Shown piece by piece: positions 10,784 to 43,392 of a DNA stretch of 64,000 bases (position 1 is its first letter; each line of letters opens with the position of its first letter). The notes under the pieces were generated by a model. That model was not told where the DNA came from and ran no database searches. It saw only the letters and a list, made by a program, of their open reading frames with translations. A program made the translations under genes and the position numbers. The DNA is from an uncultured Acidobacteriota bacterium (GTDB lineage: Bacteria > Acidobacteriota > Thermoanaerobaculia > Multivoradales > SZUA-115): the NCBI GenBank assembly GCA_963805975.1, contig CAWDVR010000004.1, positions 320,001 through 384,000 on the forward strand, written 5' to 3'.

Positions 10784-11883
10784 CGCACCGGCTCTCCGAG
10801 ACAGATCCCCAGCTCGCGCGCGGTCGCCACGGCGTCGCCGTCGAGCGGCACGGTCTTCAGGCGGCGGATGGCCTCCGACAGCGGCACCGCTTTGACCCGC
10901 GGCGGATCGACGGCCACCATCACCGAGAAGCGGCCCCGCGCCACCATACGCACCGCCGCGGCGCCGAAGGAGAGGGCGAGCAGGCGGTCGTGCGCCGTGG
11001 GCCCGCCGCCCCGCTGCAGGTGCCCGAGAGTCACGGTGCGCGTTTCCTTGCCGGTCCAGCGCGCGATCTCGGCGGCGATCGGCTCGCAGACGCCGCCCAG
11101 CCGCACCTCGCGGCCGATCTCTTGCGGCCCGCGGATCGTCAGTGCGCCTCCCGCGGGCTTGGCTCCTTCCGCAGCGACCACGATCGAGAAGCGGCGGCCG
11201 TTCGCCTCGCGGTCGAGGATCTTTCGCGCCACGGCCTCGAGGTCGTAAGGGATCTCCGGGATGAGGATCACGTCCGCGCCGCCGGCCAGCCCCGAGTGCA
11301 GCGCGATCCAGCCGGCATAGCGGCCCATCACCTCCACCACGAAGACCCGCTCGTGCGCCTCCGCGGTCGAGTGCAGGCGGCCGATGGCCTCGCTCGCCAC
11401 CGTCACCGCGGTGTCGAAGCCGAAGGTGGCGGCGGTGCCCTCGAGATCGTTGTCGATGGTCTTCGGTACTCCGACCACCGGCAGGCCCTTCTGCGCCAGG
11501 CCGTGCGCGATCCGCATCGAGCCGTCGCCGCCGATGGCGATCAGCGCGTCGAGGCCCAGGCGATGGAAGTTGGCCACCACCTCGTCGGAGCGGTCCGCGG
11601 TGGTGGTGCCGCCGTCCGGCTGCGCCACCGGGATGGCGAAAGGGTCGCCCTTGTTGGTGGTGCCGAGGATGGTGCCGCCCAGGTGGGTGATCCCGCGCAC
11701 CCGCTCGCGGTCGAGGGGGACGACCTGGCTGGTGTCGAGGAGCCCCAGGTAGCCTTTCCGGATGCCGAGCACCTCCCAGCCGCGCAGCTCGGCCGCGAGC
11801 ACCGCGGCACGGATCACCGCGTTCAGACCGGGAGCGTCACCACCGCCGGTGTTGATGGCGATGCGACGGATCTTGCGTCTCAT
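10780..11883 (-). CDS. pfkA: 6-phosphofructokinase (PfkA family)
   Basis: TGGGDAPGLNAVIR, GGTILGT, IGGDGS, PKTIDND, FGFDTA, EVMGRYAGWIA, LGHLQRGG. Confidence 0.95.
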   Translation of the reverse strand: MRRKIRRIAINTGGGDAPGLNAVIRAAVLAAELRGWEVLGIRKGYLGLLDTSQVVPLDRERVRGITHLGGTILGTTNKGDPFAIPVAQPDGGTTTADRSDEVVANFHRLGLDALIAIGGDGSMRIAHGLAQKGLPVVGVPKTIDNDLEGTAATFGFDTAVTVASEAIGRLHSTAEAHERVFVVEVMGRYAGWIALHSGLAGGADVILIPEIPYDLEAVARKILDREANGRRFSIVVAAEGAKPAGGALTIRGPQEIGREVRLGGVCEPIAAEIARWTGKETRTVTLGHLQRGGGPTAHDRLLALSFGAAAVRMVARGRFSVMVAVDPPRVKAVPLSEAIRRLKTVPLDGDAVATARELGICLGEPVR

Positions 11884-11894
11884 GAGCGGCGATC

Positions 11895-12416
11895 CTAGCG
11901 CGGGGCCAGCGGGCTCACCAGGATGCGGTCGATCTGCGGGTCGTTGCCCACCGGGAAGAGGTGCCAGCCCACGTCCACGAAGCCGCACTTGGCGTAGAAG
12001 GCGATGGCGCGGGCATTACGCTCCCAGACGCCCAGCCAGATGGTCTCGGCACCCGCTCGGCGCGCCTCCTCCCGGGCCGCTTCCATCAGCGCCTGTGCGA
12101 CGCCCCGGCCCTGCCACTTGCGGTCGAGATACAAGCGATAGATCTCGATCGGCCGGGGGCCCGTGACGCAGTCGGGCGGCGGCCCGGCCTTGAGCTGTGC
12201 GAAGCCGGCGAGCTCGCCCGCCACCTCGGCGAGGAGAGTCGTCATCGCCGGGTCTCGGAGCTCGGCCGTCTGCTGCGGGACGCCGTATCTTTCCTCGAGA
12301 AACAGCGCGAGGTCCTCGGCCGGAGTTTGCGGCGCGAAGGTGTCGCGGAAAGTTCGCGCTGCGATCTCGGCCAGAGGCGCTGCGTCGGCAACGGTGGCGT
12401 GGCGGATGATGAGCAA
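11895..12416 (-). CDS. GNAT family N-acetyltransferase (PaiA-like)
   Basis: TFRDTF, EIYRLYLDRKWQGRGVAQALM, IWLGVWERNARAIAFYAKCGF; TTG start approximate. Confidence 0.88.
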   Translation of the reverse strand: MLIIRHATVADAAPLAEIAARTFRDTFAPQTPAEDLALFLEERYGVPQQTAELRDPAMTTLLAEVAGELAGFAQLKAGPPPDCVTGPRPIEIYRLYLDRKWQGRGVAQALMEAAREEARRAGAETIWLGVWERNARAIAFYAKCGFVDVGWHLFPVGNDPQIDRILVSPLAPR

Positions 12417-39129: not shown

Positions 39130-41748
39130 ATGCCGCGCATGCTCAGCACTCTGACGGCAGGGCTCGCCCTGCTCGCCGCGGGGGTGATCGCCCGCGCCCA
39201 GGAGGCAACGACGGCCACTGCCGCGCCGTCGCCTCCGCCCGAGGTGACGCTCGAGCTCATCATGTCCGATCCCGACTGGCTTGGGAACCCACCCGAGAGC
39301 CCCTACTTCGCGGACGACGGCCGCTCGATCTTCTACTCGCAGAAGCGGCCCGGCGAAGAGGTGCGGGACCTGGTGCAGATCGACCTCGCGGGCCAGGTGC
39401 TGCGCACCGTGGCCCTTTCCGACTTGGGGGCCGTGGACGCCCCCGGCGGCTCCTTCTCGCTCGACCGGAAGCGCAAGGCCTTCGTGCGCGAGGGCGATCT
39501 CTTCGTCAAGGATCTCGAGAGCGGCGAGCTCCGGCAGCTCACCCGCACCGCCGAGCGCGAGCGCTCCCCGCTGTTTCTCACCGACGGCAGGAGCGTGGCT
39601 TTCCGGCGCGGCGACGCGATCTTCGTGCGCGACCTCGTGACCGGGCTCGAGCGCCAGACGGCCGATCTGAAGCTCGAGGTGGACCCGGAGAAGAAAGAGG
39701 AGAAGTTCGACTACCTGGCCGAGCAGCAGCCGCGGCTCCTCGAGTTCGTGCGCGAGACGAAAGAGAAGGAGGAGGCGCAGCGGGAGCGCGAGCTGGCGCT
39801 CCGCCGCGCGGACCCGACGCGCATCCCGCCGCCGTTCTACCTTGGCGACAAGGTCGAGATCCGCCAGATGTCGCTCTCACCCTCCGGTGAGTGGCTGCTG
39901 CTGGTGCTGGGAAAGAAGGACGAGGACGAGGGCAAGAAGGACCAGATGCCCAACTACGTGACCGCCAGCGGCTACGTGGAGACCAAGGAAGCGCGGAGCA
40001 AGGTGGGCACCGGCGAGGGCGTGAGCGAGAGCCTGCTGCTCGTCGACCTCGTCCGCGGCGAGAGCCATGCGCTCGCTCTCGACGGCCTGCCGGGCATCAC
40101 CGACGATCCGCTGCGCGAGATCCGCGAGAGGACCGAGGCGGCGCGCAAAGCGAAGAAGGAGACGAAGAGGAAGCGCGGGCTGGAGGAAGAAGACCTGCCG
40201 CCCGAGACCACGCCGCCGCCGGTCACGGAGGAAGCGGAGACGGATGCCACCGGCCTCGCCGCCACGGTGGAGCCCGGCCCGGAATCTCCCGACCCTGCCG
40301 CAGACCCTGCCGAGGAGAAGCCGGCGACGCCCAAGGCACGGCCCGTGCGGTTCACCGAACCGGTGTGGAGCGACGACGGCCGGCGCCTGGCGCTCTCCGC
40401 CTTCTCGGTCGACAACAAGGACCGCTGGATCGCCACCGTCGACTTCGAGAAGAAGGCGCTGGTGCCGCGGCACCATCTGCACGACGAGGCCTGGCTCGGC
40501 TGGGACTTCGACGAGCTGGGCTTCCTGCCGGATGGCGGGAAGCTCTGGTATCTGTCCGAGGAGAGCGGCTTCTCGCAGCTCTATCTGTTGGACCTTGGTT
40601 TGGACCTCACGGCAGACGGCGCTGCGTCACCCCGGCAGCTCACCTCGGGCGAGCAACTGGTCTCCGAGGTCCGCGCCTCACGCGACGGAGAGCACCTCTA
40701 CTACCTGGCCAACCCCGCTCATCCAGGCGTCTACGAGGTGTTCCGGGTCGCGGTCGAGAGCGGCGAGGTCGAGCCCCTGACCCGGCTCGGCGGGCTCAAC
40801 ACCTACCAGCTCTCGCTCGACGAGAAGCTGCTCCTGGTGGAGCACTCCGATGCTCTGCAGCCGGTGGAGCTCTATCTCCAGAGGAACGAGCCGGAGGCAT
40901 CCGCCACCCGCCTCACGCAGACGGTGAGCCCCCGGTTCGCGTCCATCGCCTGGACGCCACCGCAGTTCGTGCCCGTGCCCTCCACGCACGCCAGCCGACC
41001 CGTCCACTCGCGGCTCTATCTGCCGGCCGATGGGCCGGAGGGAGCCAGCCCCGCCTCGCGTCCGGCGGTGGTTTTCATCCACGGCGCCGGCTACCTCCAG
41101 AACGCGCACCAGGGCTGGTCCACCTACTTCCGCGAGTTCATGTTCCACACCTTCCTCACCCGCCACGGCTACGTGGTGCTGGACATGGACTACCGCGCCT
41201 CGTCCGGCTACGGCCGCGACTGGCGGACCGCGATCTACCGCCAGATGGGCACCCCCGAGGTGGAAGACCTGGAGGACGGCGTCGCCTACCTGGTCGCCGA
41301 GCACGGCGTGGACCCGGCGCGGATCGGCACCTACGGCGGCTCGTACGGCGGGTTCCTCACCCTGATGGCGCTGTTCAAGAAGCCCGACCTCTTCGCCGCC
41401 GGCGCTGCGCTGCGGCCGGTGACGGACTGGGCGCACTACAACCACCCCTACACCTCGTCGATCTTGAACACTCCCACCCTCGACCCCGAGGCCTACGAAC
41501 GCAGCTCACCCATCGAGTTCGCCGACGGCCTCGCCAAGCCGCTCCTGATCTGCGCCCCGATGCAGGACGACAACGTCTTCTTCCAGGACACCGTGCGCCT
41601 GGCGCAGCGGCTGATCGAGCTCGAGAAGGAGAACTGGGAGGTGGCGATCTTCCCGGTCGAGCCCCACGGCTTCCGCGAGCCCTCGTCCTGGCTCAACGAG
41701 TACCGGCGGATCTTCAAGCTGTTCGAGGAGAACGTCGGGCGCCGCTAG
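39130..41748 (+). CDS. S9 family (DPP IV-like) peptidase
   Basis: FIHGAGYLQN, DYRASSGYG, GGSYGG, DDNV, EPHGF. Confidence 0.93.
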   Translation: MPRMLSTLTAGLALLAAGVIARAQEATTATAAPSPPPEVTLELIMSDPDWLGNPPESPYFADDGRSIFYSQKRPGEEVRDLVQIDLAGQVLRTVALSDLGAVDAPGGSFSLDRKRKAFVREGDLFVKDLESGELRQLTRTAERERSPLFLTDGRSVAFRRGDAIFVRDLVTGLERQTADLKLEVDPEKKEEKFDYLAEQQPRLLEFVRETKEKEEAQRERELALRRADPTRIPPPFYLGDKVEIRQMSLSPSGEWLLLVLGKKDEDEGKKDQMPNYVTASGYVETKEARSKVGTGEGVSESLLLVDLVRGESHALALDGLPGITDDPLREIRERTEAARKAKKETKRKRGLEEEDLPPETTPPPVTEEAETDATGLAATVEPGPESPDPAADPAEEKPATPKARPVRFTEPVWSDDGRRLALSAFSVDNKDRWIATVDFEKKALVPRHHLHDEAWLGWDFDELGFLPDGGKLWYLSEESGFSQLYLLDLGLDLTADGAASPRQLTSGEQLVSEVRASRDGEHLYYLANPAHPGVYEVFRVAVESGEVEPLTRLGGLNTYQLSLDEKLLLVEHSDALQPVELYLQRNEPEASATRLTQTVSPRFASIAWTPPQFVPVPSTHASRPVHSRLYLPADGPEGASPASRPAVVFIHGAGYLQNAHQGWSTYFREFMFHTFLTRHGYVVLDMDYRASSGYGRDWRTAIYRQMGTPEVEDLEDGVAYLVAEHGVDPARIGTYGGSYGGFLTLMALFKKPDLFAAGAALRPVTDWAHYNHPYTSSILNTPTLDPEAYERSSPIEFADGLAKPLLICAPMQDDNVFFQDTVRLAQRLIELEKENWEVAIFPVEPHGFREPSSWLNEYRRIFKLFEENVGRR

Positions 41749-41879
41749 GGAGACCTGCCTCGAGGGCGATCTGCTCCGTCGCGGGTCCTTCCGGAAACCG
41801 GATGGTTCCAGAGTAGACTCGGTGATCGAGCCGCTCCGTCATCGAAACACCGCCGCCCAGCGGTTCGAGGAGGCTTGCC

Positions 41880-42620
41880 TTGGCCCAGAAGCCGCCTGCT
41901 CCACTCCGTCCTCCCGCTTTCCCGGCTCGTGCTCTGGCCGCTCATGTGCAGAGAGCCGTCCTGCGAGCGGTCCAAGCCAAGCTGCCGGAGCGGCCGGCAT
42001 CGACCGCCGGCACGACAGCCCAGCCGAACGCTCACTCCTCAGTGCCGGCCGCACGACCCTTGGCGCCCCACGTGCGGGCCGCGGTGGTGCGGGCGGCACA
42101 AACCAAGCCCCTGAGCCGCGCGGCTCTCCAACCCAGTGCCGTCGGCCGGCTGGGCGATCCCAGCAGGGCCCTGGGTACGCGATCCACGCTGCGACCGATC
42201 TCGGCCAAGGCCGTGATCCAGCGCGCCGCAATATCGGATGACGAGGATGACGAGATCGCGGCCATCTTTGCGGGCAATGTCCAGCATCGAGCTCCGGAGG
42301 AGCTCAAGAAGCTCCTCGGGGGTAGCTTTCCCACTATCATGGTCGCAGACAACTACTTGACGCGATGCTCGGCCGCCGAGATCGACGCTCTCTACGGCTT
42401 CGCAGTCACGCTCTCGAGCGGCCGGGCGCCGCGCGGATCCATCTTCGAGGATTTCAAGGCCAAGTTCACGTCAGCTCCTAGCAAGTACATCGCCGAACTC
42501 ATGTTCGTGAACACTCCTGCCTGGGACTTCGGCGAGGTGTCGGCGAGCGGCCAACAGATCCTCACCTACAGCAAGACGACGTGGGACACGAAGGGAACGA
42601 CCCTGGACGCGAAGGACTAG
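41880..42620 (+). CDS. Hypothetical protein: repetitive leader ending in VIQR plus unknown ~131-aa C-terminal domain (candidate effector)
   Basis: GAGGAGG RBS before TTG 41880; RALAAHVQRAV and RPLAPHVRAAV repeats; VIQR at 42213-42224. Confidence 0.7.
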   Translation: MAQKPPAPLRPPAFPARALAAHVQRAVLRAVQAKLPERPASTAGTTAQPNAHSSVPAARPLAPHVRAAVVRAAQTKPLSRAALQPSAVGRLGDPSRALGTRSTLRPISAKAVIQRAAISDDEDDEIAAIFAGNVQHRAPEELKKLLGGSFPTIMVADNYLTRCSAAEIDALYGFAVTLSSGRAPRGSIFEDFKAKFTSAPSKYIAELMFVNTPAWDFGEVSASGQQILTYSKTTWDTKGTTLDAKD

Positions 42621-42645
42621 CTCTGCTGCGGAGATGGCGAAGCGG

Positions 42646-43392
42646 CTAGCCAACCCTCCCTACTCTCAGCACCAGCGGCCAGCGGATCGCCCGCACCGAC
42701 TCCGCCTTACCCCACTCTGCCTCCAGCTCGGAGCGGATGAGATCCAGCGGGTCCTCGCCGCGCTCCTTTTGGTAGCGCCGTGCCGCCGACCAGGTATCGA
42801 GGTAGCCGGTGAGGTCGGCGAGGGTCCACTCGACGCGCATCTCGAAGGGAGGGTTGGAAAGCTCCTCGAACGGGAAGGGCAGCGTCTCGTAGAGCTCGTC
42901 CACCCACTTGCGCTCGGGCGGCCAGTAGGGCCCGACGATCTCCTCGTGGTAGAGCCGGATCACGGCATCGATCCCGGGCGCCACCCTCAGCAGGTCGTAG
43001 ACCCACACCGCGAGCGACCCGCCCGGTGCCGCCACCCGGCGAACCTCGGCGTAGAAGGCGTCGAAGTCGAACCAGTGGAGGGCCTGCGCCACGGTGACGA
43101 GGTCGACCGTCCCGCTCTCGAGGCCGGAGCGCTCGGCTGGCGCCGTCCTGTAGCTGATGCCGGGATGGGCCTCGGCCTGGGCGATCTGGCGGGCGCTGGC
43201 GTCGGTGGCGATCACGCTCTCGAAGTGCTGGGCGAGCCCCAGGGCCGCCTGGCCGTTGCCGGTGGCGCAGTCCCAGGCGAGGCGCCGGCCGGGGACGATG
43301 GCGGCGAGGTAGGCGAAGAGCTCCACCGGGTAGCGCGGCCGGTGCAGCGCGTAGGCACCGGCGTGGCCGGAGAAGTGGTCCTTGAAGTTCAT
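42646..43392 (-). CDS. Class I SAM-dependent methyltransferase
   Basis: FKDHFS, RPRYP, AWDCATGNGQ, AQALHWF. Confidence 0.92.
   Translation of the reverse strand: MNFKDHFSGHAGAYALHRPRYPVELFAYLAAIVPGRRLAWDCATGNGQAALGLAQHFESVIATDASARQIAQAEAHPGISYRTAPAERSGLESGTVDLVTVAQALHWFDFDAFYAEVRRVAAPGGSLAVWVYDLLRVAPGIDAVIRLYHEEIVGPYWPPERKWVDELYETLPFPFEELSNPPFEMRVEWTLADLTGYLDTWSAARRYQKERGEDPLDLIRSELEAEWGKAESVRAIRWPLVLRVGRVG

Follow-up and report, generated by a model that had tools for sequence, protein, structure and literature searches.

What is encoded by the solitary gene at 41880..42620, and by which machine, if any, does its product travel? The gene lies in a window of 64,000 nucleotides (the whole stretch analysed here, positions 320,001 to 384,000 of contig CAWDVR010000004.1, assembly GCA_963805975.1) from an uncultured bacterium of the Acidobacteriota, and its predicted product consists of an N-terminal leader followed by a distinct C-terminal domain (C-domain). 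A preliminary description, made from the letters of the DNA, had taken it for a candidate effector of an injection system or a candidate polymorphic toxin. Our favoured reading, to which we give about an even chance, is that it represents an orphan of a lineage-restricted family of polymorphic effectors, with delivery through a type VI secretion system (T6SS) likely. Judged from the sequences, the leader would be a new delivery leader, confined to one lineage and carried by polymorphic effectors, with delivery through the T6SS and the function of the payload both presumed.

The source genome (G000) comprises 5.36 Mb in six contigs (C1 to C6) with 70% guanine plus cytosine (GC), the target gene being located on C4. 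On grounds of conservation its open reading frame (ORF) is a real gene, because a genome of the same genus (G001) has a syntenic ortholog, 82.5% identical, in which TTG start and frame are preserved and a single codon indel leaves the frame unbroken; the neighbouring genes are 77–81% identical between the two genomes. The leader is rich in alanine (23.5%), proline (13.9%) and arginine (12.2%), with a net charge of +16. No hydrophobic run of five or more residues occurs in its first 70 amino acids, and Kyte-Doolittle means over 12 residues peak at 0.74, so that it lacks a Sec-type h-region and shows no sign of a Sec/Tat signal peptide. The preliminary description of this segment, about 115 residues of Pro/Ala/Arg-rich sequence lacking a signal peptide, was thus borne out, as were all of the motifs that it listed, i.e. 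two copies of R.LA.HV..AV (RALAAHVQRAV and RPLAPHVRAAV), VQAK, AQTK, LQPS and the closing VIQR. The AlphaFold2 model of the full-length protein gives the leader a predicted local distance difference test (pLDDT) score of 29–46, which fits disorder, and contains only two short helices there, coinciding with the two repeated units.

These units define a family. Units were pulled by pattern and built into a 17-column hidden Markov model, which after one iteration was searched (E<0.01) against the 43,649 six-frame ORFs of G000. It retrieved 12 ORF pieces representing 11 genes; the two target units scored 19.0 and 16.0 bits, with E=4.2e-7 for the whole ORF. BLASTP added three genes (C6:170017, C1:731137 and C6:158824). 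The leader is therefore common to at least 14 genes of this genome, target included, and the C-domains that follow it are mutually unrelated, except for two homologous pairs (C2:204914, with a bare leader, and C2:474096, behind DUF4157; C2:252945 and C1:441663). Two or three further candidates are weaker, C3:81268 and C2:474096 among them. The consensus of 25 units reads xAAHVQAAVxxAQAKxx, with A2 and H4 invariant; most leaders are basic, start with M-P/A-x-x-P-P and hold 2–6 units. Of the 11 family entries without DUF4157 that were scanned in G000, 9 have a leader closed by the motif [AVIL][VILA]Q[RP]x. The general plan is a basic, Pro-rich head, the units and an [AV][VI]QR boundary. With two units in its N-terminal c. 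120 residues, and a VIQR boundary followed by an unrelated C-domain, the target falls within what we call the AxHV-leader family. All three BLASTP matches between the target and its paralogs are confined to residues 8–111, none entering the C-domain (C6:170017 matches residues 15–111 and C1:731137 residues 8–74), and a second G000 ORF retrieved by protein search matched only residues 8–82; it has three similar units and, behind an AVQRM boundary, a C-domain of another kind. When residues 1–115 were searched against a 5.8-billion-protein database only the window's own protein was returned, this query being too short and of too low complexity for the E-value scale.

The preliminary description had predicted a dispersed effector family in which the domains behind V(I/V)QR would be unrelated, and at least 13 further genes of G000 carry the leader in this manner. 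The C-terminal swapping that it expected is seen among the paralogs but not among the target's own homologs (three proteins plus the G001 ortholog), which are conserved from end to end. It was also right in describing the target as a member without DUF4157 (PF13699, 'eCIS_core', PVC-metallopeptidase): Pfam hmmscan at E<=1 finds no family in the target, while two paralogs combine this domain with the leader unit in one protein, the leader preceding DUF4157 in C1:444989 and units following it in C6:158824. Pfam recognised only DUF4157 (in four off-locus proteins that were scanned) and a 'Stv' domain (C1:444127) in the paralogs. Three of them (C2:204914, C2:474096 and C6:170017) and a protein of the relative G003 we take to be deaminase-like from an H/CAE...PCxxC-type motif, a presumptive label for which Pfam returns nothing. 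No DNA motif is shared upstream of the family genes, the most widely shared 7-mer turning up in 5 of 14 such regions, while the controls average 5.4.

Two loci of the family have features of their own. On C1 a four-gene island holds two leader genes split over frames (G000:C1:440962-442316 and 443096-444086; L019:8962-10316, 11096-12086), the frame breaks falling between leader, Ser/Ala-rich linker and C-domain; one of the two C-domains is homologous to that of C2:252945, and the second, in which Pfam finds nothing, resembles GNAT on visual inspection. Elsewhere on the same contig a tRNA-Lys(ttt) gene (G000:C1:1006700-1006775; L023:3700-3775) ends 25 nucleotides upstream of the leader gene C1:1006801. 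Genes for tRNAs are typical insertion sites of mobile islands.

How far the leader extends was addressed in eight related genomes of the same family (G000–G007; five genera) and beyond. It is present in four of the seven other family genomes (G001, G002, G003 and G006), again on proteins with diverse C-domains, and was not found in G004, G005 and G007. The unit profile found nothing in 33 genomes from the order's other families or in 300 other genomes sampled across the phylum (E<=0.001), from which it follows that the leader is lineage-restricted and no by-product of composition. TssC (PF05943), the T6SS sheath protein, was likewise found in G000, G001, G002, G003 and G006 and not in G004, G005 and G007, i.e. 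in 5/5 genomes with the leader and 0/3 without it. The distribution of Pvc16_N plus gp19, which mark an extracellular contractile injection system (eCIS), was different: both occur in G000, G001, G002, G004, G005 and G007 (three of the five leader genomes and all three leaderless ones), while no Pvc16_N, gp19 or phage-type sheath was found in G003 (98% complete, 30 contigs) or G006 (95% complete). Taken alone the split of leader and TssC is merely suggestive, because it comes from eight related genomes of five genera.

Gene order also points to the T6SS. On contig C6 of G000 a full T6SS-i gene set runs in the order TssK, TssM, TssA, TssB, TssC, Hcp, TssE, TssF, TssG and ClpV, and continues into a two-component/cyclase block. 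The block gives way to a leader gene (157112), to genes for a SPOR protein, for the protein with DUF4157 and units (158824) and for a TIG protein, and to a second leader gene (162114-162755), whose end is 25 nucleotides upstream of vgrG. Beyond vgrG itself (162780-164843) the minus strand encodes PAAR (166010-166336) and a further leader protein (170017). The corresponding region of G001 is syntenic, and in G000, G001 and G002 an orthologous protein of 213–219 amino acids, with an MSRP-APHV start and two units, is encoded 4–25 nucleotides upstream of vgrG, making it a candidate spike adaptor or core effector. Its C-domain (L020:10114-10755, L075:1868-2509, L076:3608-4267) is conserved and belongs to no Pfam or NCBIfam family. 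On contig C69 of G002 (L049:8337-14745) five tandem leader-bearing genes stand directly after clpV, followed by a DUF4157-plus-unit gene; two of the five C-domains are GH-E HNH nucleases (PF14410), one is an OTT_1508 deaminase (PF14441) and two are unassigned, and one protein of the array ends in an HAE...C..C motif. Leader genes adjoin DUF4157 genes in G000, G001, G002 and G006. G000 holds a single VgrG, PAAR and Hcp of T6SS type, all on C6, and such a set serving at least 14 leader proteins fits a common handle.

Other genes stand near these T6SS loci. A 1143-amino-acid patatin-like phospholipase protein and a Ser/Thr protein kinase are encoded a few kb upstream of the T6SS in G000 (G000:C6:126784-131901; L046:14784-19901). 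In G003 the T6SS on contig C11 (L050:9711-17086) is followed by genes for an HlyD-like protein, a C39-peptidase ABC transporter and a LanC-like protein, a set that looks like lanthipeptide-type export and processing.

The DUF4157 proteins separate along the same line. In a tree of 33 DUF4157 domains from the eight family genomes, 14 form a clade (SH-aLRT, i.e. Shimodaira–Hasegawa-like approximate likelihood ratio test, 97; stem length 0.79) drawn only from six eCIS-positive genomes and mostly from contigs bearing eCIS markers. The other 19 come from five T6SS-positive genomes, plus one long-branch domain from G004, and all DUF4157 proteins with leader units fall among these 19, none (0/14) in the eCIS clade. 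By this tree, DUF4157 divides within this bacterial family into a clade of the eCIS loci and another that is nearly confined to genomes with a T6SS, and the Pfam name 'eCIS_core' accordingly misfits some of its members. DUF4157 metallopeptidases are indeed known from T6SS clusters, the available text on the VgrG2b C-terminal family (PMC6899460) being an example. The eCIS-locus DUF4157 genes of G000 lie on C3 at L015:17764-19644 and L016:1848-3314.

The remaining part of the target is its C-domain of 131 residues, which has an ordinary composition and a net charge of -7. It matched no family in Pfam (at E<=1 and E<=5), in NCBIfam or in a profile search of PDB, and its best score in the ESM Atlas (0.85) was under the level of a lead. 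The AlphaFold2 model of this domain, made from an alignment of five sequences, shows six helices in model residues c. 18–105, with a mean pLDDT of 59.9. Foldseek, the comparison that the preliminary description had pointed to, gave no match in PDB at E<=0.001 (the top hits were NusB at E about 1), and the best VIA-align hit for this low-confidence model in wide mode (Z 5.8; root-mean-square deviation 3.3 over 80 residues) is in the generic range of helical bundles. The C-domain stands as a candidate payload.

Its relatives are few. The whole protein retrieved 4 proteins at E<=0.001 among 6127 candidates in the 5.8-billion-protein database, the window's own included, and an exhaustive search with residues 105–246 among 1.84 billion representatives gave five matches, of which three are real (P0003, P0005 and P0006). 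The other two, P0007 (2983 amino acids) and P0008 (713 amino acids), are long tandem-repeat proteins that match over just 40–47 residues and were discarded as spurious, as were the Laspinema/cyanobacterial loci L053–L055, where the match is an 'EDDEIAAIYAG' stretch inside an 872-amino-acid membrane protein. The homologs are 42–54% identical, with 52 invariant columns across the C-domain; P0005 and P0006 share 47% full-length identity with the target and have two units, an xIQRA/VVQRA boundary, the acidic patch and the C-domain. Since these homologs share the leader-type layout from end to end, the C-domain of the target is seen solely behind such a leader. The preliminary description had reported more A/T-ending codons in this domain than in the neighbouring genes. 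The GC content at third codon positions (GC3) of the C-domain (0.80) is indeed below that of four neighbouring genes (0.89–0.93), but the leader is low as well (0.75), so that the gene is atypical as a whole and not in its C-domain alone; the GC minimum of the 8 kb scanned (0.61) lies at 42200-42599.

If the favoured reading is correct, the leader would act as a shared loading signal and the C-domain as the injected payload. The units, as short helices in a disordered segment, may attach the protein to the one VgrG/PAAR spike or inside the tube of Hcp, either directly or via the conserved vgrG-linked leader protein; the C-domain would then act inside the target cell, and the VQR boundary is a possible processing site. 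A bolder combination of these elements, which we regard as rather improbable taken as a whole, holds that the leader is an undescribed T6SS delivery signal of a new structural type (short helical units and no folded domain), that the units dock cargo on the single VgrG via the vgrG-upstream leader protein, that a T6SS-clade DUF4157 protein cuts at VQR in cis or in trans and so frees the payload, and that the C-domain is a new toxin fold; the leader would then hold nuclease and deaminase toxins inactive up to their delivery, which is why they could be borne with no immunity genes.

Several observations weigh against delivery of the target by a T6SS. No T6SS, vgrG or DUF4157 gene surrounds it, and contig C4 has no PF13699 hit; as the target lies away from any machine locus, its assignment to the T6SS rests only on the shared leader. 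A cognate immunity gene directly downstream is lacking, which is unusual for antibacterial T6SS toxins, and the G002 array leaves no room between its genes for immunity genes. In G003 no leader gene occurs in the 20 kb beside the T6SS. The co-occurrence of leader and T6SS could reflect a single gain or loss. Two leader genes of C1 are split over frames, and in G000 itself tssC and tssF are frameshifted as assembled, tssC by four single-base frameshifts (five frame pieces) and tssF by two (three pieces) relative to G001 (G000:C6:145015-149233; L047:13015-17233), while no break affects tssB, tssM or clpV. A TCGGAG context surrounds two of the insertions, and the frameshifts are either T6SS decay or (systematic) assembly indel errors. 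Were the indels real, the T6SS of G000 would be dead and the target might be a relic or use another route. The genome also encodes a full eCIS locus, and the architecture of an N-terminal domain (NTD) that is disordered, an optional DUF4157 and a variable C-terminal domain (CTD) is one proven for eCIS cargo in the available text of 10.64898/2026.05.27.728243.

Among the alternatives, the one that survives best, although we consider it unlikely, is that the leader family is no cargo of a contractile injection system (CIS), that the leader serves as a pro-region, as an inhibitory segment or as a signal for a different route of export or processing (e.g. by a dedicated peptidase or transporter), and that its proximity to the T6SS reflects a shared competition island. 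The target and most paralogs are after all dispersed orphans, one leader gene lies 25 nucleotides behind a tRNA-Lys gene, as is typical of island insertion, and the conserved VQR boundary resembles a processing site. Nuclease and deaminase toxins without immunity genes would, moreover, need to be held inactive in the producer, and most leader genes are intact in an assembly in which tssC and tssF are broken. What this explanation accounts for poorly is the coupling of a leader gene to vgrG in three genomes and the array after clpV, both hard to explain without a T6SS; a Sec-type h-region is also missing, and no transporter is conserved beside the leader genes in the annotated loci.

A second alternative, quite unlikely in our judgement, makes the target cargo of the eCIS: the leader would be a disordered loading sequence read by an Afp15/Pvc15-like AAA+ ATPase, and the protein would be packed in the tube of the Afp/PVC-like locus on C3. 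The preliminary description had called for a search for such a locus elsewhere in the genome, and one exists: besides sheath, tube and baseplate components it encodes an AAA+ ATPase whose N-domain is a winged helix, a pair of DUF4157 proteins and large baseplate/fibre proteins. The position of the leader N-terminal to DUF4157 in C1:444989 reproduces the NTD-DUF4157-CTD layout of AlgoCIS cargo, and the leader is basic and modelled at low confidence. [quoted passage not shown] (PMC8213781), DUF4157 is an eCIS core marker N-terminal to toxins, many of which lack immunity genes. As far as these sources go, the family of the target resembles Cgo1/Cgo2 and the eCIS-associated toxins (EATs) in a layout of disordered, system-specific NTD, optional DUF4157 and variable CTD, in the frequent absence of immunity genes and in coming from a genome that encodes an eCIS.

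The resemblance does not extend to the loci. Unlike EATs, the target lies outside the eCIS operons (these are on C3 and C2, the target on C4), and location in an eCIS operon is the strongest classifier feature in the available text of PMC11297309. No leader gene of G000 is located inside the eCIS locus, both DUF4157 proteins of which start with a GNQAV/FxR-type N-terminus and have no leader unit. Across relatives, G003 and G006 are leader-positive without eCIS markers while G004, G005 and G007 have an eCIS and no leader. Set beside the N-terminus described for EATs in PMC11297309 (hydrophilic, disordered and positively charged, with an aromatic residue in the first eight), the leader gives a mixed picture: its pLDDT is 29–46 and the charge of residues 6–21 is +2, but the mean hydropathy of the first 35 residues is 0.04, which is not markedly hydrophilic, and no aromatic residue occurs in the first eight. 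The available text of Danov et al. (PMC11297309) reports no specific conserved sequence in eCIS signal peptides, unlike the clear repeated motif of the leader. The eCIS as delivery machine, towards which the preliminary description leaned through its comparison with DUF4157 proteins, is not favoured: eCIS markers do not co-occur with the leader, TssC does, and leader genes stand in T6SS clusters. Of the two machines the T6SS is probably the one used.

G000 has in addition a second contractile phage-tail-like cluster (G000:C2:1020667-1033631; L017:10667-L018:3628), with sheath, gp19 tube, CIS tube, a VgrG-like hub, baseplate J and P2-I-like proteins, NPCBM-assoc/FG-GAP proteins and a weak match to Pvc16_N. 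Neither an AAA+ ATPase nor DUF4157 was seen there. It may be a tailocin, a prophage remnant or another CIS.

The C-domain might also be no toxin, and the target an adaptor, structural protein or regulator that shares the leader, like the vgrG-upstream protein. We hold this to be very unlikely. The domain occupies the place where paralogs hold recognised toxin domains, its distribution is patchy (three real homologs among the representatives searched) and its codon usage is atypical; its missing catalytic motif, family and fold match, the missing immunity gene and a conservation between G000 and G001 equal to that of the housekeeping neighbours would all suit a non-toxin, and RIX-type domains occur on secreted adaptors too, as the available text of PMC10435454 describes. 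That the ORF is spurious or in decay, which the frequency of long chance ORFs at 70% GC, the lowered GC3 and the lack of promoter- or terminator-like sites would allow, is barely credible given that start, frame and length are kept in the syntenic ortholog, that homologs exist at 42–54% identity and that a strong ribosome-binding site precedes the gene.

For a T6SS-delivered family of this kind the nearest known counterparts are RIX (Vibrionaceae; PMC10435454), PIX (Enterobacterales; 10.1101/2023.07.16.549128) and WHIX (PMC12135965), described in the available texts as N-terminal delivery domains of polymorphic T6SS cargo effectors or adaptors. On the basis of those descriptions the AxHV leader is like them in being one lineage-restricted N-terminal module found on many unrelated C-terminal toxin domains, in having members both in T6SS clusters and as scattered orphans, and in that some members may be adaptors (here the vgrG-linked leader protein). 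It is set apart from them, by the same descriptions, in being no folded domain but a low-complexity basic segment of 2–6 tandem 17-residue units with a VQR close, in being confined to one family of uncultured bacteria, in its fusion also to DUF4157 and in that no immunity genes were seen. The leader model has no counterpart in Pfam or NCBIfam, and no description of it was found in the paper searches made, although the motif cannot be searched as text and this silence is therefore weak evidence that the leader is unpublished.

Polymorphic toxin systems, as reportedly set out by Zhang et al. in 2012, combine an N-terminal trafficking module, a variable C-terminal toxin and an immunity gene. The AxHV family is similar in its swapped C-domains behind a conserved N-terminus and in one tandem array of variants at a secretion locus; it differs in that no adjacent immunity genes are recognisable and in that the C-domain of the target is in no catalogued toxin family.

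Effectors of the T6SS and the eCIS are hard to find because they bear no universal signal, and the markers MIX, RIX, PIX and WHIX each opened a catalogue of toxins. The AxHV leader is a simple, searchable motif by which, in a single family of uncultured acidobacteria, 14 or more proteins per genome can be picked out, and as most of their C-domains match no Pfam family they can serve at once as candidates for new toxin folds. The pairing of a repeat-unit leader with nuclease and deaminase toxins that lack adjoining immunity genes is unusual and testable, and the family, having genomes with both T6SS and eCIS or with either alone, is a natural test bed for the sorting of cargo between contractile machines.

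Features of the target gene and its surroundings (window coordinates), with the eCIS locus of the source genome (contig coordinates)
Feature	Position	Strand	Basis or remarks
Coding sequence, presumed orphan member of the AxHV-leader effector family	41880..42620	+	246 aa plus stop, TTG start
Shine-Dalgarno-like GAGGAGG	41867..41873	+	read from sequence; 6 nt before TTG
N-terminal leader, aa 1-115: Pro-rich basic head, two units, VIQR end	41880..42224	+	composition, AlphaFold2 model
Leader unit 1, LAAHVQRAVLRAVQAKL, aa 19-35	41934..41984	+	low-confidence short helix modelled at aa 21-33
Leader unit 2, LAPHVRAAVVRAAQTKP, aa 61-77	42060..42110	+	low-confidence short helix modelled at aa 63-73
Boundary motif VIQR, aa 112-115	42213..42224	+	sequence; similar boundary in relatives' leader proteins
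C-terminal domain, aa 116-246, helical core, predicted payload	42225..42617	+	AlphaFold2 model, family and fold searches
Acidic linker SDDEDDE, aa 119-125	42234..42254	+	E122, D123 and E125 invariant among 4 aligned homologs
Upstream neighbour: S9 prolyl oligopeptidase/DPP-IV family protein	39130..41748	+	outside the system
Downstream neighbour: class I methyltransferase, convergent	42646..43392	-	outside the system; not immunity-type
Afp/PVC-like eCIS locus	C3:889797-919604		sheath, gp19 tube, Pvc16_N terminator, CIS tube protein, gp25

The target stands alone between its neighbours, at 131 nucleotides from the end of the S9/DPP-IV-type peptidase gene and with 25 nucleotides separating its stop codon from that of the convergent methyltransferase gene. 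The preliminary account of a lone gene with its own ribosome-binding site, a convergent next gene and no immunity gene was accurate in each respect. Scans of 41500-42900 for sigma-70 promoters and for intrinsic terminators returned no site of either kind, and a look-up of sequencing runs, and with them of RNA, for 41700-42700 listed none. Several leader genes have a methyltransferase gene close by: besides the neighbour of the target these are C1:439276, C6:164856 and, in G002, a PKMT-like gene. They share no BLASTP similarity (E<=0.01), and the idea of a methyltransferase dedicated to the leader was dropped. Further downstream, the segment 43476-44803 of the window encodes a 335-amino-acid protein with weak LiaF-C/DUF4097-like matches, all under the Pfam cut-offs, and, on the opposite strand, a membrane-protein-like ORF of 97 amino acids.

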